A stretch of DNA of 64,000 nt from Deltaproteobacteria bacterium (GCA_016699445.1 CP064976.1:1618952-1682951); one strand, 5' to 3'; positions 2,253 through 47,701 are shown, counted from the first letter of the stretch. Numbers and translations are program-made. The notes: generated by a model not told the origin, from the sequence alone.

Positions 2253-3383
2253 ATGGCCAAAATTTCAAAATTTCTGGTGTGTTTTAATTTCAGCCTCCTT
2301 TATTTTTGTTATTGGTTGCAGTCGGGATAAAAAAATCAGGATAAGTCTGATAAAAAAGATAAGAGCAGCTTTTTTTCAAAAACCTCCAAAAAAGAAAAAA
2401 CAGTTTCTGTCATCACGCCCACAGTCCGTGAAATCCCTATTGTAATCAAGACATCAGGTAAGACTGATGTTTCGGAGCGATATGAGGCTAAAGCTCCGGC
2501 AGAGATGAAAGTGCTTAAAGTTTTTGTCGAAGAAGGTGGTAAGGTTCAAGCGGGAGATCCGTTGGTGCAATTTGACGATGAGACCATCAAGCTTAAACTA
2601 AATCTGGTACGTTCTGAGATTAAAGAAGCCGAAGCCGCTTTAGCGAATATTAATTATCTAATTCAAAACAAAGAACAGCTAATAAAGGAAGAAAAAGTAT
2701 CTGAGACGGAAGCTGAAGGTTTTGATTTGAGGCTTAACTGGTACCAAAGTACAGCAGACCGTGCAAAAGCCGAAGTCGACCTTTATGAGCATACGGGTGA
2801 TATGTCTCAGATCAACAGCCCTATTGGAGGTATTGTAACCTTCAAAAGTGTGGATGAAGGGGTATCGGTCACACAAGATCAAAAATTGATTGAAGTGGCT
2901 CGAATGGATCCCATTCATTTTGTTTTTTCTGTTTCTAGTGATGAAGCCACAGCACTATCAAAAGTCCAATCAATCTCAGTGAAATTTCCCTTAATTCCCA
3001 ATCAGGATTTTACAGCCGAAGTAGCCAGTGTAGGCGCAGAAGCTAAAGCGGAGTTAGGTGGTGTTCCAGTGAGACTTAAAATTAACAATCCTGACTTTAA
3101 TCTTAAAGGTGATATGGCAGGGGATGTTTTGATCCGTACCCAAGCTAACAAAAAAGCTTTTATGGTTCCTGAATTTGTTTTGAAAAAAACTGATAAATCT
3201 TATTTTGTTTTTAAAGTCGAAGATGGAAAAGCGAAAAAAGTATTTGTCGATTTGGCAGAGACTCCTAGTAATGGTACGGCATTGGTGGTGAAGGGTCTTG
3301 TTGAAAAAGATGTGTTAGTCTCAGATTCTGACGAAGATGTAAAAGATGGAGACAGTGTTCAGTTAAAATTGAGGAAAAGAAAA
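2253..3383 (+). CDS. RND periplasmic adaptor (membrane-fusion protein, HlyD/CusB-like). The reading frame is interrupted by an in-frame TAA at 2328-2330 and has no stop before the next gene
   Basis: From 2331 the translation reads KTVSVITPTVREIPIVIKTSGKTDVSERYEAKAPAEMKVLKVFVEEGGKVQAGDPL, a lipoyl-like and beta-barrel MFP core. The ATG at 2253 encodes the hydrophobic N-terminus MAKISKFLVCFNFSLLYF in the same frame, but a TAA follows at 2328. The C-terminus runs straight into the next ATG. Confidence 0.55.
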
Positions 3384-4070
3384 ATGAAGAAGTGTTGTTT
3401 AGCATTTTTCCTTTTATTGAGTTCTGTGGTTTTTGCCGAAAATCCTATTGAGTATTTCAGTACCACTTCTCCGAAGATTCATTATTTTAAAATTCAACCG
3501 TCTCAAGCACATTTGGATATCTTATTGAGTGCTGGAGGGTTGACGGCCTCCGAGTTTCGCAAACGTAATAAATCCAATCTTGTGATCAATGGTGGTTTTT
3601 TTGATCTCGAAGGAAAATCTCTCGGTCTGATTATCAGGCATGGGCAAGAAGTGAATACTTTGCGAAAAAATTCATGGCCGATTTTTTTATTGGGTGGAAA
3701 AAAATCACAGGAAGCATTCATTGTGTCTCGTGAAGAATGGGAAAGAAATCAGAAACAGTATGGAGACGTGCAATTAGCCTTACAGGTGGGCCCCCGTTTA
3801 GTGGTCGATAGACGGGTACAAACTTTTAAAGAAAGTACTGTAGATCGTCGCTCTGCCATTGGAGTTACTCCAGATGGAGCTGTCATGATTGCCATGTCTG
3901 AACAACCTCTGTGGCTTAAAGAATGGGCTACGGTACTGGCCAAATATTGCACTCAAGCCCTCAACCTTGATGGTGGAGGCTCTTCGCAAATTTCATTTCA
4001 TGATAAAGGTGTGAGTTTTGATATCGACGGCGATACGCCAGTCCCCAATGCTGTTTCAGTGGCTTACTGA
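3384..4070 (+). CDS. Secreted phosphodiester-glycosidase-family protein (DUF2233/NAGPA-like)
   Basis: It has its own signal peptide [18 protein letters not shown]. The motifs [22 protein letters not shown] and [11 protein letters not shown] are typical of this family. Confidence 0.55.
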
Positions 4071-7307: not shown

Positions 7308-8699
7308 ATGGCTCAAAAAAATAAATCTCAAAAATGGTCTGGACGTTTTGCTCAAGGGTTGGATCCCTTAGCCCTCGATTTTACTCAATCTATTTCCTTT
7401 GATCAGAAGCTTTATTATTATGATGTGAAGGGGAGTTTGGCCCATGCCAAGATGTTGCAGAAGGTCGGGATTCTCACCAAAAAAGACTATGATGATATTC
7501 GTCGTGGGCTGACCTCGATTGTGGATGATCTTCAGCAGGGGAAATTCGAATTTAAAGAAGAATTAGAAGACGTACATCGCAATATTGAAACAGAATTGAT
7601 CAAACGCATTGGGGCTGCTGGTGGCAAACTGCATACAGCCCGTAGTCGCAATGATCAAGTGGCTTTGGATTTTAGGCTCTACTGTCGTGATCGAGTGATG
7701 GAGCTGCATGATTCGATCCTAGAGCTCGAAGAAGCTTTTGTTGTGAAAGCGGAAGAGTTTCCTGAAGTCGTCATGCCTGGATATACTCATCTTCAAAGGG
7801 CTCAACCGGTACTCTTTGCACATCATCTTTTAGCTTACGTAGAAATGTTGGAAAGAGATCGTGAGCGTTTGCAGGATCTTTATAAGCGCGTCGATACCTT
7901 GCCTTTAGGTTCTGGGGCGATCGCGGGAACGACATTTCCAATCGATCGAGAATTTGTTGCTAAAGAATTAGGGTTTGGTCGTGTCTCACATAATAGTATG
8001 GATGCTGTTTCGGATCGGGATTTTGCGATTGAGATTGCGTCGGCGGGATCGATTCTCATGATGCATTTGTCTCGTTTGAGTGAAGAAATGATTTTGTGGT
8101 CGTCGTCTGAGTTTGATTTTATCAAATTGCCCGAATCCTTTTGCACAGGTTCTTCGATGATGCCCCAGAAAATGAATCCCGATGTTCCTGAGTTAATTCG
8201 TGGAAAAACAGGTCGTGTGTATGGGTCTTTGGTGTCTCTTTTAACGACAATGAAGAGTTTGCCTCTGGCCTACAATAAAGACATGCAGGAAGATAAAGAA
8301 CCGATTTTTGATGTGTTTGAGACGGCTATTAATTGTGTTGATGTATTGGTGCCGGTAGTTTTGGGGATGAGACCCAAAGAAGACAAGATGAATATTGCGG
8401 TCTCAGATGGTGGTTTGTTGGCAACCGAAATTGCGGATTGGTTGGTGACGCAAGGAGTGGATTTTAGATCGTCGCATGAAGTGACAGCGCAAGTCGTGCG
8501 GTATTCTTTAGAAACTAAAAAAGATATTACCGAAATGTCGCTGCAAGAATTTCAAAAGTTTTCAGGAAAATTTAACGAGAAAATTTTTGATGTATTGACG
8601 GTGAAAGCAGCAGTAGATCGAAGACGTTCTTTGGGTGGAACGTCGGGTGTGAATGTTAAAAAAGAAATTAAACGAATAAAGAAAGTTATCGAATCATGA
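7308..8699 (+). CDS. argH: Argininosuccinate lyase
   Basis: Fumarate-lyase signature regions are present ([12 protein letters not shown]) in a 463-aa protein. The gene overlaps lysA by 4 bp (ATGA). Confidence 0.9.
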
Positions 8700-9924
8700 A
8701 CCACTTTAATTACAAAAAAAACGAACTGTATTGCGAGGATGTTTCTTTAGCACGCATTGCTCAAGAAGTAGGGACTCCAGCTTATGTCTATAGCTATGCA
8801 ACACTGACACGTCACTTTGATGTGTTTGATAAAGCTTTTGGAAAGCTGCCACATCTGGTGTGCTTTGCGATGAAGGCTAATTCCAATATTGCTATTCTTA
8901 GAGCTCTTATCAATCGGGGAGCGGGGATTGATATTGTTTCTGAGGGGAACTTTTCCGTGCACGAACAGCAGGAGCTCCAGCAAATAAAATTGTTTATTCA
9001 GGTGTTGGAAAAACACGCGAAGAAATGGCCTATGCTCTTAAAGAAGGTATTTTACAGTTTAATATCGAATCTGAAGAAGAGGTCTTTGTTTTAAATGAGG
9101 TGGCGACAAGTTTGGGTCTCAAAGCTCCTGTGTCGTTTCGGGTGAATCCGAATATTAATCCCAAAACACATCCATATATTTCGACGGGATTGAAGAAGAG
9201 TAAGTTTGGTGTGCCTTTTGAACGGGCGATTGAGATTTATGAAAAAGCACGCAAGCTTCCTGGAATTTCTGTCCAAGGCGTGAGCTGTCATATTGGATCG
9301 CAGATTACAATTCTGACGCCGTTTCGGGATGCTTTAGCTAAAGTCAGTGTCTTGGTGGCTGAGCTGCGCAAGCGGGGTTTTGATATTCGTCGTGTAGATT
9401 TGGGTGGAGGTTTGGGGATTCCTTATAAAAATGACAAAGTACCCAGCCCCAAACAGTACGCAGATATTTTGAAAAAAGGGATTAAAGAATTAGGCTGTAC
9501 GGTCATGTTTGAACCGGGTCGTGTGATTGTTGGAAATGCGGGGATCTTGCTGACGAAAGTGATGTATAAAAAAACGAGTGGGAAAAAGACGTTTGTGATT
9601 ATTGATGGAGCCATGAATGATTTGATTCGGCCCGCTTTGTATGGATCTCATCATGAAATTTTGCCAGTACAAAGAAGAAAGGCCACAATGAAAGCTGATA
9701 TTGTGGGCCCTGTATGTGAGTCGGGAGATTTTTTTGCGGAAAATAGATCGTTCCCTGCTTTAAATTCAGATGATCTTTTAGCTGTGATGAGTGCTGGTGC
9801 TTATGGGTCTGTGATGTCGTCTAATTATAATTCACGGCCTTTAGTGGCAGAAGTGATGGTAAATGGAAATGAATTTCACGTTGTTCGGCAAAGACAGGAA
9901 TATAAAGATTTATTACGTGGTTAA
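8696..9924 (+). CDS. lysA: Diaminopimelate decarboxylase, split by an apparent single-base frameshift in a G4 run at ~8944-8947
   Basis: The N-terminal part reads ..AGIDIVSEG in one frame. The rest ([41 protein letters not shown]..) reads in the -1 frame, and one extra G restores continuity. Confidence 0.85.
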
Positions 9925-9944
9925 CATGTTCCGAAATTTTTAAT

Positions 9945-10787
9945 ATGAAACTAAAATTCACAAAAATGCATGGCCTGGGAAATGATTTTATCGTTGTTAA
10001 TGGGGTTAATGGGGTAGCCGGCCGCAAAGGCACATTACCCAATTTTAAAAAAACCGGGAAAATTTTAGGCGATCGACGCTTTGGCGTGGGTTGTGATCAG
10101 ATTCTTGTTCTGAAAAATTCCAAAAAGGCCGACTTCAAGATGGAAATCTACAACTCCGATGGCAGTCAGGTGGAGATGTGCGGCAATGGGATTCGTTGTC
10201 TGGGACACTATGTGCGCACGCATAAGCTCTCGCGGAAATCAGAGCTGAGTGTTGAGACATTGGCCGGCATTCAGATTATCAAATTTTTGCCTAAGGGCTT
10301 GATTCAGGTGGATATGGGTGCGCCGGTTTTGGAAGGCTTAAAAATCCCCACGACTATTCATGGAAATATTGTGAATCACGATGTGAGTTTTGATGGTCAT
10401 CCTTTTCAGATCACGTGCGTGTCGATGGGAAATCCGCATTGTGTGATTTATGTGAAAAATGTGGATGAGTATCCCGTGCATGAGATTGGGCGCATGATTG
10501 AAACGTCCTCTATTTTTCCCAAGCGGACGAATGTGGAATTTGTGGAATTGATTTCCTCCAAAGAAGTTAAAATGCGCGTGTGGGAACGTGGAGCGGGCGA
10601 GACGTTGGCGTGTGGAAGCGGTGCTTGTGCTGTGGGTGTCGCAGGGGTTTTGAATGAAGTTCATGATCGAAAAGTGAAAGTGAATTTGCCTGGTGGGCCT
10701 TTGGTGATTGAGTGGAATCAGAAAACCAATCATGTGTTGATGACGGGACCTGCCGAGGAAGTGTTTGAAGGAGTGATACAGGTTTAG
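9945..10787 (+). CDS. dapF: Diaminopimelate epimerase
   Basis: The motifs MHGLGNDFIVV and two catalytic Cys (CGNG.., GSGACA) are present in a 280-aa protein. Confidence 0.9.
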   Translation: MKLKFTKMHGLGNDFIVVNGVNGVAGRKGTLPNFKKTGKILGDRRFGVGCDQILVLKNSKKADFKMEIYNSDGSQVEMCGNGIRCLGHYVRTHKLSRKSELSVETLAGIQIIKFLPKGLIQVDMGAPVLEGLKIPTTIHGNIVNHDVSFDGHPFQITCVSMGNPHCVIYVKNVDEYPVHEIGRMIETSSIFPKRTNVEFVELISSKEVKMRVWERGAGETLACGSGACAVGVAGVLNEVHDRKVKVNLPGGPLVIEWNQKTNHVLMTGPAEEVFEGVIQV

Positions 10788-12591: not shown

Positions 12592-14340
12592 ATGAAAATC
12601 TCAAAAAGTGTTTTTCTTGTCTTTTTTTGTATCTTTTTTTCAGCTTGCTCTAGTGTTTCGGTATCACCCGGGAGTGGTGGCTCTGGAGGAAGTGCTGGTA
12701 CTGGAGGCACCTCTGGGACAGGTGGTTCTTCGGAAAATGTTGGAACTGTTGATATCAATCAAGACCGTTATGATATAGGTTCTCCTACTCTCTTTAATGT
12801 TTATTTTAGTCCTACTGGTAGTAGTGATAATGATGGGCTGACCCCAAGCACCCCACTTCGCTATTTAAATTCTATCAAAAATTTTATTCGTACACGTGAA
12901 GGTGTCACCGATCGGGATGCAGTGCTGACTCTTTCTCGTACAGGTTATCAGATTAATTTAGCTCCAGGGACTTACTCTGATGAAGATACAGGGCATGTGA
13001 TGGATAATATCCAAGGCACAGCTGAGTTTCCCATTATTATTAAATCCAGTTCAACAGCTCAAGGTGGTGATGCCATTGTTCAAACTGATTTAGAGTTTGA
13101 TCATGTTAAGTATCTTTATCTGATGAATTTCACCATTTCTCGCCATGGTGATGCCCTTCATATCTCTCATTCAGACCATGTACTTGTCAGCAACATGATT
13201 CTCAATGGAGGTACTTATGATGGTCATGGTGCAGATTCTATTTCATCGGTAGCTCATGACATGTTTAAGGTGAACCAGGCTCAATATATTTTCTTTGAAG
13301 ATAGTCTTGCTAGTGGTGCTGATGACAATGTGATGGATTGGGTTGCTGTTCAGGTGGGACATGTCGTGGGGAATACTATTCACAATTCCCATGACTGGTG
13401 TGGTTATGTCAAAGGCGGCTCTTCTTATATCGTCGTTGAAAACAATTTGATCTATGATTGTTATAATGGCGGTTTTACTGCAGGCCAGGGAACTGGATTT
13501 GAATACATGGTAGCTCCGTGGCTCTTTTATGAAACCATGGATGTGAAAATTATTAATAATGTGATTCATGATACTCATGGTGCTGGTTTAGGAGTGGCAG
13601 GTGGCTATAACACTCTATTAGCTTATAACACTCTTTATAAAGTTGGTGATGATCTTCATGAATATGGTCGAGCTCAGGCTTTTGATATTGTTCATGGAGG
13701 TCGAGAATGTGATCACGACGGAGATTTGCTAGGTTATTGCAATACTAATCTCAGTCAAGGGGGCTGGGGCCAGCCTTTCTCAAGTTCAAGTGAAGTTCAT
13801 ATACCGAGTAAAAATATTTTTATTTATAACAATATTGTCTACAACCCTGATACTTATAATACCATCGATGCAGTTTTTAATGTGGATGCTCCTGTAACGA
13901 CCAATGCTGATGATTCTAATATCCCATCACCATCTATTGTTGATTCCAATTTGGTAATTAAAGGTAATTTTATTTATGCCAATCCTTGGCCGGGACATGA
14001 ATCAAGTCTCTTTTCCCATGCTGAAGGGTGTGCTACTTCCAATACGACATGTAATGCCACACTGGTGAATGCTAACAATAGTATCAATGCGGCTGTGCCA
14101 CAATTTCAATCGCTAGATCCCGATAATACACATTTTCTCAAGCCCACAGCTTCTGGAAATATTTTTTCAGTAACAACCTATTCCCCGCCTGATTTTGCTT
14201 GGTTGGATGTCCCCAGTCTTAATGAGACAGCTACAACACGGACGCCTTCTGCTGGAAATCTCTCTAATACTATTTTGGTAGATAAGAGTGGAAATGCTAG
14301 AACAGGTTCAAGTATCCCCGGAGCTTATTCAGAACCTTAA
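12592..14340 (+). CDS. Lipoprotein with a Gly/Ser/Thr linker and right-handed parallel beta-helix (PbH1) repeats; a putative secreted polysaccharide-active enzyme
   Basis: The lipoprotein signal is MKISKSVFLVFFCIFFSAC. A GSGGSGGSAGTGGTSGTGG linker follows, then repeated NN(V/L)I(H/Y)D..(G) beta-helix rungs. Confidence 0.5.
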   Translation: MKISKSVFLVFFCIFFSACSSVSVSPGSGGSGGSAGTGGTSGTGGSSENVGTVDINQDRYDIGSPTLFNVYFSPTGSSDNDGLTPSTPLRYLNSIKNFIRTREGVTDRDAVLTLSRTGYQINLAPGTYSDEDTGHVMDNIQGTAEFPIIIKSSSTAQGGDAIVQTDLEFDHVKYLYLMNFTISRHGDALHISHSDHVLVSNMILNGGTYDGHGADSISSVAHDMFKVNQAQYIFFEDSLASGADDNVMDWVAVQVGHVVGNTIHNSHDWCGYVKGGSSYIVVENNLIYDCYNGGFTAGQGTGFEYMVAPWLFYETMDVKIINNVIHDTHGAGLGVAGGYNTLLAYNTLYKVGDDLHEYGRAQAFDIVHGGRECDHDGDLLGYCNTNLSQGGWGQPFSSSSEVHIPSKNIFIYNNIVYNPDTYNTIDAVFNVDAPVTTNADDSNIPSPSIVDSNLVIKGNFIYANPWPGHESSLFSHAEGCATSNTTCNATLVNANNSINAAVPQFQSLDPDNTHFLKPTASGNIFSVTTYSPPDFAWLDVPSLNETATTRTPSAGNLSNTILVDKSGNARTGSSIPGAYSEP

Positions 14341-26192: not shown

Positions 26193-27415
26193 ATGAAACA
26201 TGAAGTGATCGTTCCCTCTGCGGGAGAGTCAGTGAGTGAAGTTTTTATTGCGGGTTGGAGAAAGAAAAGCGGGGATCTTGTCAAAAAAGATGAAATTCTC
26301 GTGGATCTAGAAACCCAAAAAGCTTCCTTTGAGCTTCAATCTGAATTTGGTGGTCGCTTGGAAGTTTTGTTTCCCAACAATGATACCAAAGTAAAGCCAG
26401 GAGATGTGATTGCTTATGTGGATGATGGCCCTGGTGCTCAGGATACAGCTTCTGTTTCTTCAGAACCAGTAGCGAAAACTTCAAGCTCTTTTGAAGTGGA
26501 ACAAGCTGTGAGCCCTGCAGCGCGCAAAATGGCTGCTGAAAAAAATGTTAATTTAGCTTCCGTGCAAGGTACCGGTAAAAGTGGTGTGATCTTAAAAGAA
26601 GATATTCAAAGAGCTGCCGAAGCTCCTCAAAAGTGGCGGCTCAACCTGCTCCAACGCCATCAGCCACTTCCCAGTCGACAGTTCTCAATTATCAAATCGA
26701 CGAATCTCGTGGAGAGAGACGGGTGCCGGCCTCGCGCATTCGTAAGCAGATTGCGATGAATTTGGTGGCAGCCCAACATACAGCGGCCATTCTGACGACG
26801 TTTAATGAAGTGGATATGACGCAGGTTTTGGAATTCAGGAAAAAATACAAAGATCAGTTTAAAGAAAAATATGGAGTGAACTTGGGGATGGTGAGTCCTT
26901 TTGCTCTAGCAACCGTTCGTGCGATCAAGATGTATCCTCAGGTGAATAATATTTTTACAGGAGAAGATATTATTCAAAGAGACTTTGTGGATCTTTCGAT
27001 TGCTGTCAGTACGGATAATGGTTTGGTGGTTCCTGTGCTTCGCAATGTGGATAAAATGAATGTAGCTTCATTTGAAAAAGGTCTTTCGGAGTTAGCGGAA
27101 AAAGCTCGTTCCCGAAAACTTTCCATTCCTGAAATGACGGGTGGAACATTTACCATTACCAATGGTGGTGTGTTTGGATCGTTGATTTCAACACCTATTC
27201 TCAACATGCCTCAGGCGGCGATTTTGGGACTTCACAAAACACAAGAGCGTCCTGTGGTGGTGGATAAGCAGATTGTTATTCGCCCTATGATGTATATGGC
27301 CCTTTCTTATGATCATCGGATTATCGACGGTCGTGAAGCTGTTGGATTTTTAGTGGCTATCAAGGAAGGTATTGAGAATTTGAGTTTGATTATTAATGAA
27401 AAGGAGCTTTTCTAA
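26193..27415 (+). CDS. sucB: Dihydrolipoyllysine-residue succinyltransferase (E2o), with an apparent 1-bp frameshift in an A4 run at ~26629-26632
   Basis: The lipoyl domain (..DLETQKASFEL..), the E3-binding domain (AVSPAARKMAAEKNVNLASVQGTGKSGVI) and the catalytic domain (..TTFNEVDM.., DHRIIDGREAV) are all present, with the catalytic domain in the -1 frame. Confidence 0.85.
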
Positions 27416-37796: not shown

Positions 37797-38758
37797 ATGA
37801 TTTCTACACATAAGGGAATGTGTCTTGTTTATCACCCTCGTATCAATCAAGGCAGTATGGCTCGTGTATATCGTGGGCGTTGGGAAATGGTGTGGAGACG
37901 CAAGATGTTGCCATAAAAATGGTCAATGTAGATCGTGAAAAAAATCCAGATCTTTATGCTCTTGTTGTTCAGAGGTTTGAACGGGAAGCTAAAGTTTTAG
38001 AATTGTTGTCGGGTGTTCCTTACATGATGAGGCTTGTGGATCATGGGTCGGATTCCTTGCTTGTGTGTTCTTTGGTGGAAGGGGAGAGTTTAATGAACTT
38101 TTCCAGAGAAAAAATGATGGTGAAAGATCAGGCCCAATTGGCTTTGAAAATTGTGGATGCTTTGATGGGAGCTCATCAACGGGGCATTGTGCATGGAGAT
38201 GTCAATTCCACCAATCTCATGGTGGCCGACAATTCACCTGTCTTCATCGATTTTAACCTGGCTCAAAATTATCCACCGACAGCTCAAGGCTTTGGCGGCA
38301 AGTTTTCCCGAAAAGCTTTTGAAGGAGCCCCTGGATATTTAGCGCCTGAAATGTTTTTGGGGAAAAGTGTGGGCCAATCTGTTGATTTAACATGGGAAAA
38401 CGCTGTGCAGGTGGATGTCTATGGTTTGGGGGCTGTGTTGTATCATTTGTTTACAGGCTATATCCCCTACATGGGGTTAGATTTTGTTCGTGATCTGCTC
38501 AGTCAAGAAGCCTTTCAAGAAGCCGTTAATGAAGAGGACCGTCGGCGCAAATTATTTAAACATGTGGCTGAGTTGATGAATGCCTGGGGTACGGTAACCA
38601 ATCCTGCCGACGTAAATTATGAATTGCCTATCGAAATTGGGAATATAATTTTAGAATTACTTAATAAAAATCCTTCCAACAGGCCGTCTCTTTTGCAGGT
38701 GAAAAAAGTTTTAAGTCATTGGGTTAAAACTTCAGACTCTTTCGAAGCCGTAGCCTAA
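37797..38758 (+). CDS. Atypical eukaryotic-like Ser/Thr protein kinase-like protein (possible pseudokinase), with an apparent 1-bp frameshift at an A3 run (~37885-37887)
   Basis: The Gly-loop (INQGSMARVYRGRWE) is encoded from the ATG at 37797 in one frame. The motifs VAIK, HGDVNSTN (degenerate catalytic loop), DFN (instead of DFG) and GAPGYLAPE read in the next frame, and one extra A joins them. Confidence 0.6.
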
Positions 38759-40372: not shown

Positions 40373-41647
40373 TCAACGGTTAGAATCTATTTGGAGTGCC
40401 TGAAAGGCTTGTTTCACTTGGTTGATATCGGGATAGCGCCCTGACGGAGTTTCTGAGAGATCTGTCGTGAGACATCTCGGGAGAAACGGTTTTAATTTTT
40501 CGGGAATATTGGAGAATTTTCGGTCCTGTGGATTTCTAAGAAAAAGATCCATGTGTTTTTGCAGCTGGGAGCCTGTGGCTTGATCAAATCCTCGAAAATA
40601 AAGTTTCTCAAACAGTGTGACACCTAAGCTGTAAACATCCCCTTGGGGAGACCAAAGAAATTTTTTGTTTTTAAATTCAGGATTTCCTGAATTAATGATT
40701 TCACACTCTGCTTCCGGAGGGATATAGCCGATGGTTCCGATACGATGGTGTTGGGGTTCTTGAATCTGAAGATCACGTTCATAGACGGAAAGAGCAAAGT
40801 CACAGAGTTTGAAATTTTGGTTTGGAAAGATGAGAATATTTCCGGGCTTGATGTCTCGTAATATTAGGTGGGTGCGCGGGCTTAGTTCTCCTTCGTGGGC
40901 GGCGGCGTAGAGAGAAAGAATGGATCCTAAAGTGGCCCAATCTTCACTTTCTGTTCCCATCATAAATTTATCAAAACTTTGAAGGGCGCTCTCCATACAA
41001 ATATCAAATAAAAATGTATCGTTTGCGGAACTTTCTGTGCATCCTCCAAAATCAAGAGCTTTCACCACATGTGGACTTTCTGTCCCTAACGTCATCGCTA
41101 GTTCCATCCAAAAGCCATAGGCTGGAATCACCTTGAGGTTGAGATCAGATCTTTTGAAACGTTTAATGGCTATTTCCCGATCAGAGTTTTCCCAAAGAGA
41201 GACTTCCGAAGAGCTATGAGGCCCTTCATGAATTGTTTTTGTTTTTGAAAAATCCTTCTTAATAAAAGGAGAATCCTGGGTCCCTTCTAAAATAGCCTTA
41301 AGACGTGATAGTACTTCATCAGAATTTTCTCCTATCAAGCCACAATGTTTGAAGGCAGCTCGGTTTCCTCTTAAGACAGCTTCAGGAGATACGTTATCAT
41401 CCGGAGTGAATTGATGGGCACGATTTAAGACTTTCAATCTGTGTTGAAGATCTTTTAAAAACTGAGCTCCTTGTTCACACGAAGCATCCAGATATTGAGC
41501 TGTAGAGACTGCTTGCTGGTAATAAGTATTGAGCAAACCATCATAATCAATGGCGCCAATATTTCGAGGCGCAGGGGAAGAATCCGTCATCCACGGAAAT
41601 TGTTTTTGGAGGGCGACAAATTGTTGAGTTAGGACCGAAGTATCCAT
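40373..41647 (-). CDS. Atypical eukaryotic-like Ser/Thr kinase-like protein with a ~140-aa N-terminal extra domain
   Basis: The motifs REIAIKRF (VAIK-like), LILRDIKPGNIL (catalytic loop), KLCDFALS (DFA in place of DFG), GTIGYIPPE and DVYSLGVTLFE are present. Confidence 0.65.
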   Translation of the reverse strand: MDTSVLTQQFVALQKQFPWMTDSSPAPRNIGAIDYDGLLNTYYQQAVSTAQYLDASCEQGAQFLKDLQHRLKVLNRAHQFTPDDNVSPEAVLRGNRAAFKHCGLIGENSDEVLSRLKAILEGTQDSPFIKKDFSKTKTIHEGPHSSSEVSLWENSDREIAIKRFKRSDLNLKVIPAYGFWMELAMTLGTESPHVVKALDFGGCTESSANDTFLFDICMESALQSFDKFMMGTESEDWATLGSILSLYAAAHEGELSPRTHLILRDIKPGNILIFPNQNFKLCDFALSVYERDLQIQEPQHHRIGTIGYIPPEAECEIINSGNPEFKNKKFLWSPQGDVYSLGVTLFEKLYFRGFDQATGSQLQKHMDLFLRNPQDRKFSNIPEKLKPFLPRCLTTDLSETPSGRYPDINQVKQAFQALQIDSNR

Positions 41648-41686: not shown

Positions 41687-42262
41687 TTATTGACGGCAAA
41701 GAATAAAATATTGTCCGATCGATTTTCCTTTTTTGGTCGCTTCGCCAATAAAGACGTTTTTGGACACACGTCGCAGGTAGTCCTTCATATACCCATAAAC
41801 CAACTTTGTGAGTCCGGTTTCGTTGGATTTAATTTCCGGCCAGCCAGCGACATTTTCTTTGGGAAGTCGGGTGTAGTCCACCATGATTTCCCCTGGGCGA
41901 TCAGTAGCCTCATCAATCACAAAACATCCAGGACCTGTGATTTTTTGGAATGTCTGAAAATTATACCCCCACACTTTAGATCCATCCCCCGATCCAGAAA
42001 GAGCCATTCTTTTTTGAAAAGTTGAAAAAAGAGGAAGTGAATTTTTCCCGTAAAAAATGACTTCCTGCAAAGGTTTAGCATCGGAGGGCATCAAGTCTGA
42101 AAATTTCAAATCAGGAGTCGCGATTTGAAAAAGACAAGATTGAAACTTCCCTCCGACACTATTGATTTCCTTTAATCGATCTTCGTGACTCAACCCATCC
42201 AAAAAAGCCCCAATACTTTTTTGTGATTTCCCTGCCTTAATCATCTCAAGAAGCGACGACAT
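41687..42262 (-). CDS. Hypothetical protein, 191 aa
   Basis: An ORF with no recognised motif. Confidence 0.4.
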   Translation of the reverse strand: MSSLLEMIKAGKSQKSIGAFLDGLSHEDRLKEINSVGGKFQSCLFQIATPDLKFSDLMPSDAKPLQEVIFYGKNSLPLFSTFQKRMALSGSGDGSKVWGYNFQTFQKITGPGCFVIDEATDRPGEIMVDYTRLPKENVAGWPEIKSNETGLTKLVYGYMKDYLRRVSKNVFIGEATKKGKSIGQYFILCRQ

Positions 42263-42307: not shown

Positions 42308-43732
42308 TTATTTTTTCATCGACTCAATTAAAATCTTTGCCACTTCAGGTCGGGAAAATTCCACAGGAGGCAATGTACCTTGAGTTAAGAGCTCGCGGAC
42401 CTTGGTGCCTGAAAGTGTGACGCGGTCTTCTGCAGCGTGAGGACAGGTTTTGTTAGAAGCCATGCCTTCGCATTTTTTGCAGAAGAAAGTGTGGTCAAAG
42501 AAAAGAGGTGTGATGCCGATTTCTTCCGGTGTGAATTCATTAAAAATGAAGTGAGCATCGAAAGTGCCATAGTAATTACCCACACCGGCATGATCACGAC
42601 CAACGATAAAATGTGTGCAGCCATAATTTTTGCGGATCAAGGCATGGAAGATCGCTTCACGAGGTCCAGCATAGCGCATGGACGCAGGATTGACCGCCAA
42701 AACTGTACGATCCATAGGGTAATAATCTTTAAGCAAAACTTCATAACATTTCATACGCACGTCTGCAGGAATATCATCACCTTTGGTATCTCCCACGAGC
42801 GGGTGGATCAAAAGACCATCACAGATTTCCAAAGCGACTTTGGTCAAATATTCATGAGCACGGTGGATTGGATTGCGCGTTTGAAAAGCGACAATACGCT
42901 TCCATTTTTTTTCTACAAAAAGAGCACGCAGAGCTGAGGGATCTAATCTTTGAGGAAGAAAATCAGAATAGCTCACACGATTGAGAACTTCGACTTTTCC
43001 ACCCAAGTAGACGTCGCCTTGTTTTTTGACGACGGCCACGCCGGGATGAGCCTCTTCAGTGGTTTTGTAAACTTTTTGGCATTCGAGCTCTTTTTGAGCC
43101 AAATATTTTTCTTCCAAAAGAAGAACAGCCAATTCTTTGCCGGTTTCGTCTGTGAGTAAAATGGGTTTCCCAATGGCAAATTTTTCAGCCTCTTCTTTGC
43201 TCACAGCCAGAGTAATGGGAATCGTCCAAGGAGCCCCGTTGGCTAAGTGCATATTATTAACAACACCCAAATAATCTTTTTCCCCCATAAATCCTTCAAG
43301 AGGTGAGAGGGCGCCGCAAGCGATCATATCCAGATCACTTTTTTCACGAGAACCGAGAACGATCTTCGGAAGACTGGCTGCTTGTGAAAGCCATTGAGAA
43401 CGTTTTTGGGAATCAACCACGCGGTTGATCAGAGTGCCACCATGAGCTTCGATAGGCGCTCCACCCGCAATCGCTGGCACGATGGATAATTCATCGCCTG
43501 CTTTGACGGGTGTGGCTTCGCCATTGAGGAAACGGATATCTTCGTTGTTCACATAAAAATTAATGAAGCGGCGTAATCCACCTTTTTCATCATAGAGACG
43601 CTCTTTGATGCCGGGGTATTGTTTCTCTAAATCCGCCAAGAGGTCTTTGACGCTCGCGCCAGCAGCGGAGACTTCGCCTAAGTTGGCGGTGATTTTTTGT
43701 AGGGGTGTGGGGATGCGGACTTTGATCGACAT
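42308..43732 (-). CDS. sat: Sulfate adenylyltransferase (ATP sulfurylase) with an in-frame N-terminal MoaD/ThiS-like ubiquitin-fold sulfur-carrier domain ending in Gly-Gly
   Basis: Residues 1-91 (MSIKVRIP...KAGDELSIVPAIAGG) resemble MoaD, including a C-terminal ..GG. They are followed directly by the canonical Sat N-terminus APIEAHGGTLINRV, then QTRNPIHRAHE and GRDHAG, for 474 aa in total. Confidence 0.85.
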   Translation of the reverse strand: MSIKVRIPTPLQKITANLGEVSAAGASVKDLLADLEKQYPGIKERLYDEKGGLRRFINFYVNNEDIRFLNGEATPVKAGDELSIVPAIAGGAPIEAHGGTLINRVVDSQKRSQWLSQAASLPKIVLGSREKSDLDMIACGALSPLEGFMGEKDYLGVVNNMHLANGAPWTIPITLAVSKEEAEKFAIGKPILLTDETGKELAVLLLEEKYLAQKELECQKVYKTTEEAHPGVAVVKKQGDVYLGGKVEVLNRVSYSDFLPQRLDPSALRALFVEKKWKRIVAFQTRNPIHRAHEYLTKVALEICDGLLIHPLVGDTKGDDIPADVRMKCYEVLLKDYYPMDRTVLAVNPASMRYAGPREAIFHALIRKNYGCTHFIVGRDHAGVGNYYGTFDAHFIFNEFTPEEIGITPLFFDHTFFCKKCEGMASNKTCPHAAEDRVTLSGTKVRELLTQGTLPPVEFSRPEVAKILIESMKK

Positions 43733-43742
43733 ATATTTCTCC

Positions 43743-44204
43743 TTAAATTATTTTTTTTTGGTTGTAACCTTTCAGGGATTCGTCCCAGAAAAATTCGTTA
43801 ATTTCTTTTAACTCTCTGTTGTAAATCGATACCACTAAATACGAAATGCCGGGATAGCTGGGCTCTCCCCACGGAGCGGCGACTAGGCGATCTTCTTCTG
43901 AAAAATAAGCGTCGTGCTCGCAATGTGAATGGTAAATACATTTCACTTCTTGTCTGTTTTTTTCAGCTTCATCAAAAATACGCTGCTGTTCTTTTGGATC
44001 AATCAAGTAGGCAGTTTTAGCAGTGCGTGGGTATTGATCCGGATATTTTTCATGCATGTCGTTATAAATATTTTTGATCGGAATAAATTCCGCCACAGAC
44101 TCTTGACCTTTGTCTCCAATTAACAATCCACAGGATTCGTCAGGCCAATGTTTTTTGGCGTAAGCGACAATCGTCTCAATTGTTTTATCGCAAATAATCG
44201 TCAT
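43743..44204 (-). CDS. JAMM/MPN+ metalloprotease (Mec+/CysO-hydrolase-like)
   Basis: The JAMM motif HSHCEHDAYFSEED (H-x-H-x7-S-x2-D) and the upstream conserved Glu (ESCG) are present in a 153-aa protein. Confidence 0.8.
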   Translation of the reverse strand: MTIICDKTIETIVAYAKKHWPDESCGLLIGDKGQESVAEFIPIKNIYNDMHEKYPDQYPRTAKTAYLIDPKEQQRIFDEAEKNRQEVKCIYHSHCEHDAYFSEEDRLVAAPWGEPSYPGISYLVVSIYNRELKEINEFFWDESLKGYNQKKII

Positions 44205-45103
44205 ACTTCAAAATACCTCTCTCCATGATCACAAAAAATGGTGACGATGGTGCCTTCCTGAATTTTTTCAGCCACGCGTAGCGCCGCGGCCATATTGCCT
44301 CCTGAAGAATGACCCACAATCAAGCCTTCTTCATGAGCGAGGCGTTCTGACATATCGTAAGCAGGCTCGGTTTCCATCGAAATCTTTTGATCTAACTCAT
44401 TTTCTTTATAAATCCCAGGCACGATCGATGACGCCATATGCTTCATACCTTCAAGCCCATGCATGGCATTGTCGGGCTCCACAGCAATGACTTGAATGTT
44501 TTTGTTATAATCTTTTAACCGTCGACCCGTTCCCATCACCGTGCCACCTGTACCAATACCTGCTATGAAGTGGGTGACTTGATGATCTGTTTGTTCCCAA
44601 ATTTCAACGCCTGTACTGTCATAATGAGCGCGTGGGTTGAATTCGTTGTTATATTGATCCGGCATAAAATAACGATCGGGATTTTCTTTTAGAAGTTTTC
44701 GTGCGAGCAAAATCGCTCCATCAGAACCTTCCATCGGCGAGGAATAAATAATATTCGATCCAAAAGTTGTCACAATAAGCTTGCGCTGAGGACTGACGTT
44801 TTCGGGCATGACGAGATCGATCTTGATCCCCATGGCCGCTCCGATCATCGCGTAGGCCACACCCGTATTCCCAGAAGTGGAATCCAACACCGTCTTCTCT
44901 TTTGTCAATTTTCCTGATTTCAAACCTTCTTGAATCATGCGTAAAGCCGGACGATCTTTGATTGAACCACCGGGATTAAAATACTCAAGCTTGGCATAGA
45001 TCTTCACTTTGCCCGATTGGATTTGAGGCAATTCTTTCCCAACCTCGCGAATGCGTACGAGTGGAGTGTTTCCAATTTTTTCTAGAATGGAATGGATCAG
45101 CAT
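44201..45103 (-). CDS. cysM: CysM-type cysteine synthase B / O-phosphoserine sulfhydrylase-like PLP enzyme
   Basis: The motifs GNTPLVRI, NPGGSIKDRPA (PLP Lys), TSGNTGVAYA and GIGTGGT are present in a 300-aa protein. The gene overlaps the JAMM gene by 4 bp. Confidence 0.8.
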   Translation of the reverse strand: MLIHSILEKIGNTPLVRIREVGKELPQIQSGKVKIYAKLEYFNPGGSIKDRPALRMIQEGLKSGKLTKEKTVLDSTSGNTGVAYAMIGAAMGIKIDLVMPENVSPQRKLIVTTFGSNIIYSSPMEGSDGAILLARKLLKENPDRYFMPDQYNNEFNPRAHYDSTGVEIWEQTDHQVTHFIAGIGTGGTVMGTGRRLKDYNKNIQVIAVEPDNAMHGLEGMKHMASSIVPGIYKENELDQKISMETEPAYDMSERLAHEEGLIVGHSSGGNMAAALRVAEKIQEGTIVTIFCDHGERYFEV

Positions 45104-45122: not shown

Positions 45123-45458
45123 TTAAGACTCCATCACACTAATCTCAATGGGCTCGACCTTCACACCACGTTTGCGAAAATAGGCAAAAGCTTTGTCGAG
45201 AACACTGACGGGCGCTTCGAGCTCAAGTGCGATCAGCCCGAGATTGTCACTGACAGAAGCTGAGCGAATGTTGAAACGCACTTTATAGAGATCATACATA
45301 TCGCAGATAATAGCTTCTTTGGTTTGGCGTTCTGGAAAGGTCACATAGACTTTGCGGCGGACCACAGGGTCTTTGTTTGTACTTGTTGTTTTTTTTGAAG
45401 CCATAATGTCTCCAGTTTGATGGTTCGACAAGCTCACCATGTCCTTGATGAGTGACAC
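45123..45458 (-). CDS. Small protein resembling a NIL domain (MetN C-terminal-like ferredoxin-fold sulfur-amino-acid-associated domain)
   Basis: The pattern ..EAIICDMYDLYKVRFNIRSASVSDNLGLIALELEAPVSVLDKAFAYFRKRGVKVEPIE resembles the NIL domain. The true start may be the internal MASKK at 45404. Confidence 0.35.
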   Translation of the reverse strand: MSLIKDMVSLSNHQTGDIMASKKTTSTNKDPVVRRKVYVTFPERQTKEAIICDMYDLYKVRFNIRSASVSDNLGLIALELEAPVSVLDKAFAYFRKRGVKVEPIEISVMES

Positions 45459-45490
45459 CCTGAGGCTGTCGAAGGGTTTAGTTTACTTTT

Positions 45491-46717
45491 TCAATGCAGC
45501 ATCCACCTCATCAATTCGGGGTTGATGATCGTTGGTTTGCCGACATGTCCTGTCATGGCTTCCTGGGTTTTGAGGCCATTGCCAGTGATACAGATGACGA
45601 CCGATTCATCTTTTTTAATTTTACCCAGCTTGATTAATTTCTTAGCCACACCCGTGGTGACGCCACCAGCTGTCTCAGTAAAGATACCTTCGGTTTCACC
45701 CAAAAGTTTAATCGCTTCGACAATTTCTTCATCGGACACATCTTCACTCCAGCCCCCTGTTTCTTTCATCGACTGCATGGCGTAAAAACCATCGGCTGGA
45801 TTTCCAATCGCTAGCGACTTGGCGATGGTGTTGGGTTTGACCGGTTTGAAAAGTTCCCAATCATTTTTTAAGGCTGTTGCAATGGGCGAACATCCCGTGG
45901 CTTGAGCCCCGTGGACTTTGCATTTTGGGTCGGTATTGTCAGTAAGGAGGCCGATCTTATGAAACTCCTTCATCGCTTTATGGACTTTGGTTAAAAGAGA
46001 TCCACTGGCCATCGGCACGACGACGTGATTAGGCACTTTCCATCCCAACTGCTCCATCATTTCATAAGCCAATGTTTTGGATCCTTCAGCGTAGTAAGGG
46101 CGGATGTTGATATTGACGAAAGCCCATTTATACTTGGCTCCGATTTCACTGCAGAGACGATTGACTTCATCGTAGGTGCCGCGAATGCCAATCACGTTAG
46201 CCCCATAGACAAGGGTGCCCAAGACTTTACCTGCTTCCAAATCATAAGGAATAAAGACGTAACATTCGAGTCCCGCTGAGGCAGCATTGGCCGCGACAGA
46301 GTTGGCGAGATTTCCCGTCGACGCGCACGAGACGGTTTTAAAACCAAACTCTTTGGCTTTTGAAAGTGCGACAGAAACCACACGATCTTTAAATGAAAGA
46401 GTGGGGTAGCAAACAGCATCGTTTTTAACCCAAACTTCTTTGACGCCTAAAGCTTTCGCCAAATTTTTAGCAGGAACCAATGGTGTGTATCCTGCGAGAA
46501 CTCCCACGGTAGGATCTTTTTCGATAGGAAGAAGCTCTCGGTAACGCCACATGGTTTGAGGACGCTTTTCAATTTTTTCTCGTGTGAGAGATTTGGCAAT
46601 CTGGTCGTAATTGTAATCCACTTCCAGAGGACCAAAACAAAATTCACAGACATGAGTGGGTGCGATCGGAAAATGATGACCACACTCGCGACACTTAAGA
46701 CCTTTTATGTATGACAT
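45491..46717 (-). CDS. Threonine-synthase-family PLP enzyme with an N-terminal Cys4 zinc ribbon
   Basis: The ribbon is KCRECGHH..CEFCFG. The ThrC PLP-lysine motif TLSFKDRVVS and Gly-rich loops are present. The ORF track extends to 46774 and overlaps the upstream gene. Confidence 0.8.
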   Translation of the reverse strand: MSYIKGLKCRECGHHFPIAPTHVCEFCFGPLEVDYNYDQIAKSLTREKIEKRPQTMWRYRELLPIEKDPTVGVLAGYTPLVPAKNLAKALGVKEVWVKNDAVCYPTLSFKDRVVSVALSKAKEFGFKTVSCASTGNLANSVAANAASAGLECYVFIPYDLEAGKVLGTLVYGANVIGIRGTYDEVNRLCSEIGAKYKWAFVNINIRPYYAEGSKTLAYEMMEQLGWKVPNHVVVPMASGSLLTKVHKAMKEFHKIGLLTDNTDPKCKVHGAQATGCSPIATALKNDWELFKPVKPNTIAKSLAIGNPADGFYAMQSMKETGGWSEDVSDEEIVEAIKLLGETEGIFTETAGGVTTGVAKKLIKLGKIKKDESVVICITGNGLKTQEAMTGHVGKPTIINPELMRWMLH

Positions 46718-46727
46718 ATATTTGCTC

Positions 46728-47527
46728 CTAATGAATAAATTTCTTCTGCAAACTAAAATATCTTTCTCCGCCATCGGGAAAGACAGTGACGACAGTTTTA
46801 TTTTTATCTATTTGCTGAGCGATCTGACGACTCGCCACAAAAGCGGCTCCGCACGAGATGCCCACCAGCAAACCTTCTTTTTGAGCGACTTCACGAGCGC
46901 CTAAAAAAGCTTCTTCATCGGTGATCGTGATGATCTCATCCACCAAAGAACGATCCAAGATCGTGGGAACAAATCCCGGGCCGATTCCTTGAATCTTATG
47001 ATGCCCCACTTTCCCTTGGCTGAGAGTCGGTGACGCAGCGGGTTCTACCGCAATGATTTTGGTTCCGTTCTTCTTTAAAATTTGAGCCGCTCCCATCAGC
47101 GTCCCGCTCGTTCCGATACCGGCGACGAAAAAATCGATCGGTTTCCCGAGATCCTTTTGAATCTCCTGAATTGTCTGATGATGCGCTTTGGGCGTTTCTT
47201 CATTTTCAAACTGATCAAAAAAATACGCGTCTGTTTTTTGGCATAATTCTTTGGCCCGATCGAGAGCGCCTTTATCCCAATATAAGCCAATCCAATCCCC
47301 GAATTTCCCGTCGTCGCGGCCACAATAGTGCCGCGAGCCGCGAGCCGCGAGCTCTTCTCCGCTTTCTCTAGAAGGTGTATGACAACTCGATCTTTAACCG
47401 AACCACCTGGATTATACTTCTCCAGCTTGGCATACACGGACGCACACCCCTCTGGCAGGCTTTTACTCAGCCTTAAAAGGGGGGTATTTCCAATGGCTTC
47501 AAGCAACGATTCCATAATAAGATCCAC
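46728..47527 (-). pseudogene. O-acetylserine sulfhydrylase (CysK/MccA-like) pseudogene with an internal ~115-bp out-of-frame deletion
   Basis: The N-terminal 110 aa (..NPGGSVKDR..TTGNSGIGLAYIG) and the C-terminal ~200 aa (DKGALDRAKEL..FVAGIGTSGTL..GIGPGF..) are CysK-like but lie in different frames. About 39 aa of the conserved core (..YKL.LTMPE..ERR.LL.A.GA.LVLT..) is absent between them. A (ccgcgag)x3 heptamer tandem sits at 47331-47351. Confidence 0.7.
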
Positions 47528-47531
47528 AAAT

Positions 47532-47700
47532 AAAAAAACCTCTTCCAGATAAGAAGAGGTGTGATTGAAGGTCTCTTCTCATCTGTCCCCATCTGCATTT
47601 AACTGCAGGGTTGGAGTTAGCACCATTTCTCCTTTTTTTTAGGAGACGGTTGCTGTGACGTCTTAGGGCCTTTCCCTCGGTCACTCTTGATAAGGTGCCG
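47532..47700 (-). ncRNA. SAM-I (S-box) riboswitch with an intrinsic terminator expression platform
   Basis: The minus-strand RNA reads CACCUUAUCAAGAGUGACCGAGGGAAAGGCCCUAAGACGUCACAGCAACC..GGAGAAAUGGUGCUAACUCCAACCCUGCAGUUAAAUGCAGAUGGGGACAGAUGAGAAGAG. This matches the S-box core (UUAUCAAGAG.G..GAGGGA..GGCCC.A.GA..GCAACC, AUGGUGCUAA.UCC..CUGCAG, GAUGAGAG). A CCUCUUC/GAAGAGG hairpin plus U7 follows at 47532-47559, immediately upstream of the cysK-like start. Confidence 0.8.
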
Positions 47701-47701
47701 C

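Follow-up and report, generated by a model that had tools for sequence, protein, structure and literature searches.

A SAM riboswitch-controlled operon with a probable MetM-type homolog of threonine synthase, a small NIL-domain protein and a sulfur carrier fused to ATP sulfurylase

Why would a homolog of threonine synthase be encoded in an operon controlled by S-adenosylmethionine (SAM)? This question is raised by a 64,000-nucleotide (nt) stretch of a genome listed as Deltaproteobacteria bacterium (GCA_016699445.1, CP064976.1:1618952-1682951; hereafter, the window), in which a thrC-like gene (45491..46717) is followed by an open reading frame (ORF) for a 93-amino acid (aa) NIL-domain protein (45123..45404), both on the minus strand. 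The preliminary description of this locus, which placed the two ORFs at these coordinates and pointed to a zinc ribbon, a NIL domain and an S-box operon, was correct on all these counts: the ORFs, the PF09383 match and the SAM-I (S-box) riboswitch, Rfam family RF00162, were all recovered. We estimate, with a probability of roughly 75% and from sequence comparison, that the thrC-like gene encodes a MetM-type enzyme, that is, a candidate homocysteine synthase, in a SAM-controlled operon, and that MetM/carrier gene clusters have in the NIL protein a third, conserved component.

The idea of such a homocysteine synthase is not new, the enzyme being a new member of a family published in 2024. The methionine route based on a ThrC homolog (MetM/MetO), which the preliminary description mentioned, is real (PMC12172450; bioRxiv 10.1101/2024.10.14.618325); it was published by Hasebe et al. 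(2024, Appl Environ Microbiol 90:e01247-24), as cited in passages of these two sources and of bioRxiv 10.64898/2026.09.15.751699. According to the relevant passages of the first two, MetM of Streptomyces albulus, a threonine synthase homolog, converts O-phospho-L-homoserine and thiocarboxylated MetO into homocysteine, and the accessory proteins of the pathway are the JAMM hydrolase Mec and the E1 enzyme MoeZ (bioRxiv 10.1101/2024.10.14.618325; PMC12172450). In passages of PMC12172450, a SAM riboswitch is placed upstream of S. albulus metM, and a cyanobacterial "ThrC" encoded beside a metO-like gene is given as 51.6% identical to MetM. The authors of GapMind state in their pathway description that MetM "is often misannotated" as threonine synthase (bioRxiv 10.1101/2024.10.14.618325). 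New relative to the literature searched are the recurrent NIL partner, the fusions of NIL to the ThiS-type carrier, and the layout of the operon in this lineage, with its ThiS-sulfurylase fusion.

The thrC-like gene starts with an ATG at 46717, with a ribosome-binding site (AGGAG) 8 nt upstream, and ends at 45491, encoding 408 aa. The product matches PF00291 (PALP; E = 1e-69) and the thrC model TIGR00260 (283.8 bits), and is a fold-type II pyridoxal phosphate (PLP) enzyme homologous to ThrC, with the PLP lysine, K110 in an SFKDR motif, invariant in the MetM clade. Its N-terminal zinc ribbon, CxxC-x11-CxxC, consists of C9, C12, C24 and C27, which are invariant among the aligned relatives down to 42% identity. 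The ribbon is not specific to one function; more distant ThrC-like representatives align from the first residues, too.

Conserved active-site positions were compared between 84 clade members and six canonical ThrC sequences. The clade retains K110 (the PLP lysine), the STGN loop and N202, whereas the PLP-phosphate loop reads PMASGSL instead of the PVGNAGN of canonical ThrC, R206 is a new invariant residue of the MetM-like clade, and three positions are changed clade-wide: T90, S157 and R162 of Aquifex aeolicus ThrC correspond to L137, N204 and Y209 of the window protein. These Thr, Ser and Arg residues (T88, S155 and R160 in Thermus thermophilus) presumably bind the substrate phosphate, which we take to be retained by ThrC to assist the addition of water. 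The substrate-phosphate site of canonical threonine synthase (TIGR00260; PDB 2zsj and 1uim) is absent from the window protein, and the three replacements would fit an altered fate of the gamma-leaving group. Cysteate synthase, another candidate identity, was rejected, with a TIGR03844 score of 56.5 bits against a cut-off of 324.9.

Relatives of the thrC-like protein were sought in a scan of 1.8 billion representative proteins, which yielded full-length relatives at 42-58% identity, one of them from Micromonosporaceae (P0246), and in a scan of one genome per species, which yielded a set of 80 genomic loci encoding homologs at 59-71% identity. The 80 loci are distributed among Verrucomicrobiota, Planctomycetota, Nitrospirota, Nitrospinota, Thermodesulfobacteriota, Cyanobacteria, Actinomycetota, Aquificaceae and other groups. 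In a neighbor-joining tree, the window protein groups with all 80 genomic homologs and with P0246. In all 100 bootstrap replicates, canonical ThrC falls outside the smallest clade that unites the window protein with P0246, a cyanobacterial member and a verrucomicrobial one. The exact limits of the clade are weakly supported, with bootstrap values of 11-47% for the inclusion of P0241, P0242, P0244 and P0246. The window protein is 51-54% identical to the actinomycete members of the clade (Micromonosporaceae, Nonomuraea), with 53.7% identity to the protein of Nonomuraea gerenzanensis (L167); a homology search seeded with P0246 returned only Micromonosporaceae among the best 120 matches listed. 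Compared with A. aeolicus ThrC (2zsj), the window protein scores 199 bits and the second thrC copy of the Nitrospirota locus L046 scores 520 bits.

An ordinary thrC accompanies the thrC-like gene in five loci, three from Nitrospirota (L031, L034, L046) and two from Nostoc (L081, L085), which implies that the two genes are paralogs with different roles. In the three Nitrospirota loci, the canonical thrC (9856-10947 in L031, 2168-3268 in L034, 1974-3101 in L046) comes directly after the metM-like, ThiS and NIL genes, such that both enzymes consuming O-phosphohomoserine would be encoded side by side.

The gene context of the 80 loci was surveyed with our own ORF calls and hidden Markov models. 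A ThiS-like ORF ending in PA[IV]AGG directly follows the thrC-like gene in 72 of the loci and was not seen there in the remaining eight; in many of the 72, as in Verrucomicrobiota and cyanobacteria, no CysM gene is present within 8 kb. Using a covariance model built from six of the riboswitches, we detected a SAM-I riboswitch directly upstream and on the same strand in 29 of the 80 loci, as well as in the close relatives L004 and L005. Among cultured actinomycetes, the element precedes the thrC-like gene of Micromonospora coriariae (L086) and of Nonomuraea gerenzanensis. The Nonomuraea layout, riboswitch, thrC-like gene and ThiS, is the arrangement published for metM-metO, whereas no ThiS ORF was found right after the thrC-like gene in M. 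coriariae, which makes ThiS adjacency common, not universal.

In the window, the operon is headed by a SAM-I aptamer (47576..47696, minus strand) that covers the full Rfam model RF00162 (positions 1-108) with 74.5 bits, against a gathering score of 44.4, and scores 120.3 bits at 47571-47701 with our covariance model R1. Between the aptamer and the first ORF, a consensus scan and inspection of the sequence revealed a terminator-like hairpin with a 9-bp GC-rich stem and a T7 tail (47538..47560, minus strand), which is likely the expression platform, that is, the terminator of an OFF switch. No SAM riboswitch was detectable upstream of the cysK-like gene in L001, the relative with 86% identity.

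Taken together, the separate clade, the riboswitch in 29 of 80 loci, the adjacent ThiS in 72 of 80, the coexistence with thrC and the 53.7% identity to the Nonomuraea protein argue for the idea put forward in the preliminary description, that of a ThrC paralog producing homocysteine from O-phosphohomoserine with a protein thiocarboxylate; the phylogeny it had called for places the window protein apart from canonical ThrC. With high probability, the window protein belongs to the MetM clade, an assignment that is based on the clade, the gene context and third-party statements on S. albulus MetM.

The second protein of interest, encoded next to the metM-like gene, is initiated at an ATG at 45404 and ends at 45123. 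Counted from a GTG at 45458, the ORF would at its longest encode 111 aa; the ATG start is supported by the alignment with 32 homologs. The protein matches PF09383 (E = 2e-11; 43.9 bits against a cut-off of 24), which bears out the NIL assignment first made from the residue pattern. An AlphaFold2 model (pLDDT 74) has a beta-alpha-beta-beta-alpha-beta topology of the ferredoxin-like type, and the best folds in the PDB by Foldseek are the C2 domains of MetN (TM 0.66-0.70; rmsd 1.5-2.5 Å over about 75 residues), followed by ACT-like and PII-like regulatory domains. The profile match to MetN C2 has an E-value of 0.0025, at 17-22% identity. In the profile alignment, N45 of the NIL protein, in the motif FNIRSASV, aligns with N295 of Escherichia coli MetN, the residue whose replacement in the N295A mutant makes L-methionine binding undetectable and relieves transinhibition (PMC6233128). 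Six residues (N45, A49, G56, L60, E61 and V83) do not vary among 18 homologs drawn from different phyla; in a few distantly related homologs, N45 is replaced by D or S.

Conservation of the NIL protein is strong. Within the lineage, 22 columns are invariant in 33 homologs, and identity amounts to 60-90% where MetM itself is 70-86% identical. Cys34 is among the residues invariant in the lineage of the window and is replaced by Y, W or F in other phyla; we rejected it as a general persulfide site for lack of conservation outside the lineage. A role of the NIL protein as the MetO/CysO-type sulfur carrier was likewise rejected: it ends in ...ISVMES, with no C-terminal Gly-Gly, has a fold other than the beta-grasp and gave no ThiS profile match; its homologs end in IE, IEG, IES or similar. 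The N-terminal tail of the free-standing NIL proteins of the lineage and of Verrucomicrobiota (45360-45404 in the window) is variable and disordered, with many Lys, Thr and Ser residues (MASKKTTSTNKDP and MATKKTVKKKTARKTTKRPVTKKGKK are two examples).

In 40 of the 80 loci, a NIL gene is found no more than 4.5 kb from the thrC-like gene; this applies to all nine loci from Nitrospirota, to 14 of the 18 from Verrucomicrobiota and to none of the 20 from Cyanobacteria. Four arrangements were observed: metM-NIL-cysM-JAMM-ThiS, metM-ThiS-NIL, metM-ThiS-cysM-NIL, and metM followed by a ThiS-NIL fusion. Free-standing genes account for 31 of the 40 cases. The nine fusions, 171-190 aa in length (L006, L008, L011, L015, L023, L026, L027, L028 and L033), come from Sumerlaeota, Thermodesulfobacteriota, Syntrophaceae, Planctomycetia, Omnitrophota and Acidulodesulfobacterium, and NIL starts 3-10 residues after the carrier Gly-Gly in these proteins (about 20 in L023); the fusion of L008 is encoded at 9275-9790. 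In the reverse test, 80 metagenome loci were collected with the NIL alignment of the lineage (A1) as the seed: the thrC-like gene is present in all 51 loci whose upstream DNA exceeds 1.3 kb, and the other 29 end at a contig edge. No paper mentioning the "NIL domain" in the literature searched links NIL with MetM or ThiS; the GapMind pathway description and other secondary sources on MetM/MetO make no mention of NIL in their passages on the pathway.

From the aptamer and terminator onward, the operon comprises, in order, the broken cysK-like gene, the genes for the MetM-like and NIL proteins, a cysM-like gene, a JAMM peptidase gene, a ThiS-sulfurylase fusion and a gene for a 191-aa protein, all on the minus strand from 47527 to 41687 and with intergenic gaps of at most 86 nt. 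The cysK-like gene (46728..47527) consists of two ORFs (47527-47096 and 47096-46728) matching positions 1-84 and 173-295 of the PALP profile. The cysM-like gene (44201..45103) encodes a 300-aa cysteine synthase of the CysM/CysK family, with a TIGR01138 score of 356.8 bits, below the cut-off of 394.2; among the structures in the PDB, cysteine synthases match it with up to 225 bits, and Mycobacterium tuberculosis CysM with 190 bits. The start of the JAMM gene (43743..44204) overlaps the cysM-like stop by 4 nt, and its product, an MPN metallopeptidase similar to Mec and HcyD, matches the Prok-JAB family PF14464 (E = 6e-20) and retains an intact JAMM motif in translation, HSHCEHDAYFSEED (HxHx7Sx2D). 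The close relatives, with MetM proteins 72-86% identical to that of the window, keep the cassette of cysK-like, metM-like, NIL, cysM-like, JAMM and ThiS genes; the cysM-like gene is thus conserved among them.

The next gene encodes a 474-aa fusion protein (43732-42308), in which residues 1-91 form a ThiS/MoaD domain (43460..43732; PF02597, E = 6e-16) ending in AIAGG, and the rest is a complete ATP sulfurylase, or sulfate adenylyltransferase (42308..43459; PF14306 and PF01747; NF003166, 556.8 bits against a cut-off of 387). The best PDB match of the ThiS domain is M. tuberculosis CysO (3dwg_C, E = 1.9e-20). The fold and the Gly-Gly are present, and the C-terminus is blocked by the in-frame sulfurylase, so that release of the carrier requires cleavage after Gly-Gly; the adjacent JAMM peptidase is presumably the agent that frees it. 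In the relatives, ThiS is a separate protein of 92-94 aa according to the deposited gene calls, with one to three residues after the GG, and the sulfurylase gene is further downstream. The ThiS and sulfurylase genes of L088 overlap in different frames; compared with this two-gene state, 11 nt (atgtttatgaa) are deleted in the window, whereby the ThiS stop and the sulfurylase start are lost and the two genes are joined in frame. A single-base error is thereby ruled out as the origin of the fusion. No E1 of the ThiF/MoeB type was found within the 64-kb window to go with the JAMM peptidase; such an enzyme may be encoded elsewhere in the genome. In M. tuberculosis, the E1 is encoded apart from the carrier locus. 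We found no description of the ThiS-ATP sulfurylase architecture in the literature examined; fusion of ThiS to sulfite reductase has been mentioned, and release of ThiS fusions by JAB peptidases has been predicted (PMC1779556).

Other carrier genes of the clade show further variation. Three Verrucomicrobiota loci (L012, L022, L030) contain tandem ThiS genes between the thrC-like and NIL genes, the first of which is more divergent (68-70 bits) and ends in AFAGG or SIAGG. In L056, from an actinomycetotal metagenome-assembled genome, ThiS is fused to an E1-like sequence of the ThiF/MoeB type (9235-10302, plus strand; GGS-LSEDEVERYSRQIILSEIGGKGQEK...); the NIL gene follows this fusion, and the thrC-like gene is preceded by genes for a JAMM peptidase and a CysM-like enzyme. 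In L001, the ThiS and sulfurylase genes are separated by an inserted ParE-toxin/DUF6290 antitoxin pair (13229-13719; L002 is the same locus), and in L005 a kinase gene is positioned between ThiS and Sat.

The 191-aa protein encoded by the last gene of the apparent operon (41687..42262) gave no Pfam or NCBIfam match. Its homologs are encoded directly after Sat in L001, L002, L088 and L089, and it may be an unrecognised component of sulfur assimilation. Close by, downstream of the operon, are two genes for eukaryote-type Ser/Thr protein kinases (37820-38758, plus strand; 40373-41647, minus strand). Elsewhere in the window, an ORF at 2505-4070 (plus strand) encodes both HlyD-type membrane-fusion domains (residues 6-204) and, at the C-terminus, a NAGPA phosphodiester glycosidase domain (residues 356-519), an unusual pairing that could be a frame-fusion artefact.

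Several observations weigh against the assignment of the thrC-like gene to a functional MetM system with a NIL partner. The score of 283.8 bits exceeds the TIGR00260 cut-off of 167.1, such that the curated equivalog model calls a threonine synthase. No second thrC, homoserine kinase (thrB) or E1/MoeZ-type enzyme was found in the 64-kb window, and the same is true of hom and metE/H (methionine synthase), which were also sought there. The cyanobacterial and Micromonospora loci lack NIL, which makes it dispensable for the chemistry in those lineages. Furthermore, the window contains lesions. About 39 codons are missing from the middle of the cysK-like gene (residues ~81-119 of the 299-aa ortholog that is intact in L001), and the reading frame shifts where the two parts meet; in tblastn, the intact orthologs of L001, L004 and L005 match it as two segments, in frames +1 and +3. 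Over its final ~12 codons (~45500-45530), the metM-like gene is out of frame relative to its relatives following a 1-nt indel in a CCCC tract: as annotated, the gene ends in ...TIINPELMRWMLH and a stop, and the -1 frame in ...PRIDEVDAALKK and a stop (RIDEVDAALKK), which matches AKISEVDELLKK of the relatives. The genes lysA (diaminopimelate decarboxylase; ~8693-9924, plus strand) and sucB (2-oxoglutarate dehydrogenase E2; ~26193-27415, plus strand) are split by frameshifts near 8950 and 26650, respectively. These lesions reflect either an error-prone assembly or gene decay, and the locus could be mis-assembled or decaying to the point that the operon is non-functional in this genome. We regard this as unlikely: the five core genes (metM-like, NIL, cysM-like, JAMM and ThiS-Sat) are full length with all the invariant residues present, and the frameshifts in lysA and sucB, both probably essential, resemble sequencing errors more than decay, which makes sequencing or assembly errors likely in the window. 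Sequencing errors are the simplest explanation of the single-base frameshifts, whereas the 117-nt difference in the cysK-like gene and the clean, in-frame 11-nt difference at the ThiS-Sat junction look real, even if the frameshifts elsewhere in the window keep the quality of the assembly in doubt for this fusion, too. It is highly improbable that the gene encodes a genuine threonine synthase placed in a sulfur operon incidentally. Such an enzyme would account for the TIGR00260 score, for the database name 'threonine synthase' carried by all the homologs, and for the conservation of the catalytic lysine and most PLP-binding motifs; however, TIGR00260 does not discriminate MetM from ThrC because all members of the MetM clade tested also pass, and the frequent misannotation of MetM noted in the GapMind description (bioRxiv 10.1101/2024.10.14.618325) bears on the names. 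Moreover, a threonine synthase is at odds with the SAM riboswitch here and in 29 of the homologous loci, the sulfur-carrier gene almost always next, the canonical thrC in the same loci, the consistent bootstrap separation from ThrC and the replaced phosphate-site residues. We also consider it improbable that the enzyme combines O-phosphohomoserine with free sulfide, with ThiS and the JAMM peptidase serving only the CysM-like cysteine synthase. The window ThiS does adjoin the genes for the JAMM peptidase and the CysM-like enzyme, at a distance of three genes from the thrC-like one, eight of the 80 loci lack an adjacent ThiS, and a Microcystis study, in a passage of PMC12172450, 'mimicked MetM activity' using Na2S. 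Against this stand the 72 loci in which ThiS immediately follows the thrC-like gene, often with no CysM gene nearby, and the dependence of the S. albulus pathway on the MetO thiocarboxylate, as given in passages of secondary sources, including bioRxiv 10.1101/2024.10.14.618325.

For the NIL protein, three roles have to be weighed, and part of the probability remains assigned to none of them. We tentatively place at the top a small ACT-like regulatory subunit that would sense methionine or a close metabolite because this reading fits the MetN precedent, the proposal that the NIL-ferredoxin of the DUF39 pathway binds methionine (PMC12068725), the need to partition O-phosphohomoserine between ThrC and MetM, and the Nitrospirota gene order metM-ThiS-NIL-thrC. 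Next comes an obligatory structural or catalytic partner, such as an adaptor for docking or assembly of the carrier and MetM, or a sulfur relay via cysteine, rather than a sensor; we find this role doubtful. It would be in keeping with the very strong conservation, the direct fusion to the carrier C-terminus in nine loci, the invariance of Cys34 in the lineage of the window and the genetic requirement for the NIL-ferredoxin of the DUF39 pathway in methionine synthesis (PMC5764234), but the aromatic residues in place of Cys34 in other phyla count against persulfide chemistry as a general role, NIL is absent from half of the MetM/ThiS loci (all 20 from cyanobacteria among them), and the fold and the conserved asparagine point to the binding of a small ligand as in MetN. 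The last possibility, a removable cap or pro-domain of the carrier, with the free-standing copies being remnants of little function, seems quite improbable. The short spacers between Gly-Gly and NIL in the fusions are suggestive of it, and so are the other C-terminal extensions of ThiS, namely R, RR or RDV in close relatives, the E1 domain in L056 and the sulfurylase in the window; however, the free-standing genes are the majority, they are under strong purifying selection across phyla and gene orders, and a mere cap would not need the conserved MetN-type asparagine. A fuller form of the regulatory reading, in which the free-standing or ThiS-fused NIL protein is an undescribed third component of the MetM/MetO system in many phyla, sensing methionine (or homocysteine or SAM) and exerting post-translational feedback at the O-phosphohomoserine branch, is put forward more tentatively still, by analogy with MetN.

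On the reading that the thrC-like gene encodes a MetM-type enzyme, the operon could work as follows. At low SAM, it would be transcribed, and the JAMM peptidase would cut after the Gly-Gly of the carrier, freeing it from the sulfurylase. An unlinked E1-type enzyme would then adenylate and thiocarboxylate the carrier. The MetM-like enzyme would replace the gamma-phosphate of O-phospho-L-homoserine with the thiocarboxylate sulfur, yielding homocysteine for methionine synthesis, and the CysM-like enzyme would carry out the analogous reaction with an activated serine, yielding cysteine. Finally, the JAMM peptidase would release cysteine, and possibly also homocysteine, from the carrier adducts. 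The NIL protein would bind methionine or a close metabolite in the manner of MetN C2 and tune MetM or carrier use at the threonine/methionine branch point; as a sensor, it could inhibit MetM, or gate the use of the carrier or its JAMM-dependent maturation. In this compact design, a single carrier, produced as a fusion with the enzyme that starts sulfate activation, would supply the synthesis of cysteine as well as homocysteine.

Because members of this clade are named "threonine synthase" and pass the thrC equivalog model, genomes that encode them risk being scored as lacking a homocysteine route. The context provides rules for the recognition of MetM: ThiS directly downstream, often a SAM riboswitch upstream, often NIL nearby, and the clade-specific active-site residues. 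The NIL protein is a testable lead, being small, highly conserved and recurrently fused to the carrier, with a fold and a key asparagine in common with a known methionine sensor. Should it control how O-phosphohomoserine is divided between threonine and methionine, this would be a new control point in amino acid metabolism; feedback through NIL would parallel MetN transinhibition, connect two unrelated homocysteine routes, DUF39 and MetM, through a single regulatory domain, and help explain why NIL domains are encoded beside both.

MetM/MetO of S. albulus is among the known systems closest to the operon: in the window, too, a ThrC homolog is under the control of a SAM riboswitch and encoded together with a ThiS-type carrier, and a JAMM peptidase is present. 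Unlike in S. albulus, the carrier of the window is encoded three genes downstream of the thrC-like gene and fused to ATP sulfurylase, the NIL gene occupies the position of metO, and the operon additionally includes the cysM-like, JAMM and sulfurylase genes; furthermore, the bacteria of the lineage are uncultured and are listed in NCBI as 'Deltaproteobacteria bacterium'.

M. tuberculosis makes cysteine via the CysO-CysM-Mec+ pathway; CysO/CysM structures are deposited as 3dwg and 3dki. The window resembles this system in encoding a CysO-like ThiS domain, with a CysM-family enzyme and a JAMM peptidase beside the carrier, and differs from it in that the CysM-like enzyme is not especially close to CysM (190 against 225 bits) and in that the operon is SAM-controlled, with a ThrC paralog as the candidate homocysteine maker. 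Thiocarboxylate-dependent homocysteine synthesis is also carried out by HcyS/HcyD/HcyF/MetY of Wolinella succinogenes, in which the enzyme is an O-acetylhomoserine sulfhydrylase of fold type I. Shared with this system, whose gene neighbourhood is that of type 4e (PMC1779556), are a C-terminal extension of the carrier removed by JAMM, as predicted for the window, and clustering with sulfate assimilation genes, including ATP sulfurylase. The homocysteine-forming enzyme of the window, in contrast, would be a fold type II ThrC paralog, presumably using O-phosphohomoserine.

The NIL protein shares its fold and the position of the asparagine with the C2 domain of MetN (PDB 3dhw, 3dhx, 3tui, 3tuz, 6cvl). 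Unlike C2, which forms the C-terminus of an ABC ATPase, this NIL is free-standing or fused to ThiS, and its partner would be a biosynthetic enzyme or the carrier rather than a transporter. IlvN and IlvH, the small ACT-type regulatory subunits of acetohydroxyacid synthase, offer another parallel, namely a ferredoxin-like, presumptive ligand-binding protein of about 90 aa encoded beside the enzyme it would regulate; this is an analogy, with no sequence relationship shown. In the DUF39 pathway, the NIL-ferredoxin of L-aspartate-semialdehyde sulfurtransferase (MA1822/DvMF_0262) is needed for methionine synthesis according to genetic evidence (PMC5764234), and its NIL domain has been proposed to bind methionine and to regulate the enzyme (PMC12068725). 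Some database entries name homologs of the window NIL after this protein. The window NIL, however, has neither a ferredoxin domain nor Fe-S cysteines, and its partner would be a ThrC paralog with O-phosphohomoserine as the substrate, as opposed to DUF39/COG1900 and aspartate semialdehyde. What the two systems have in common is a NIL domain encoded beside the enzyme of a non-canonical route to homocysteine.

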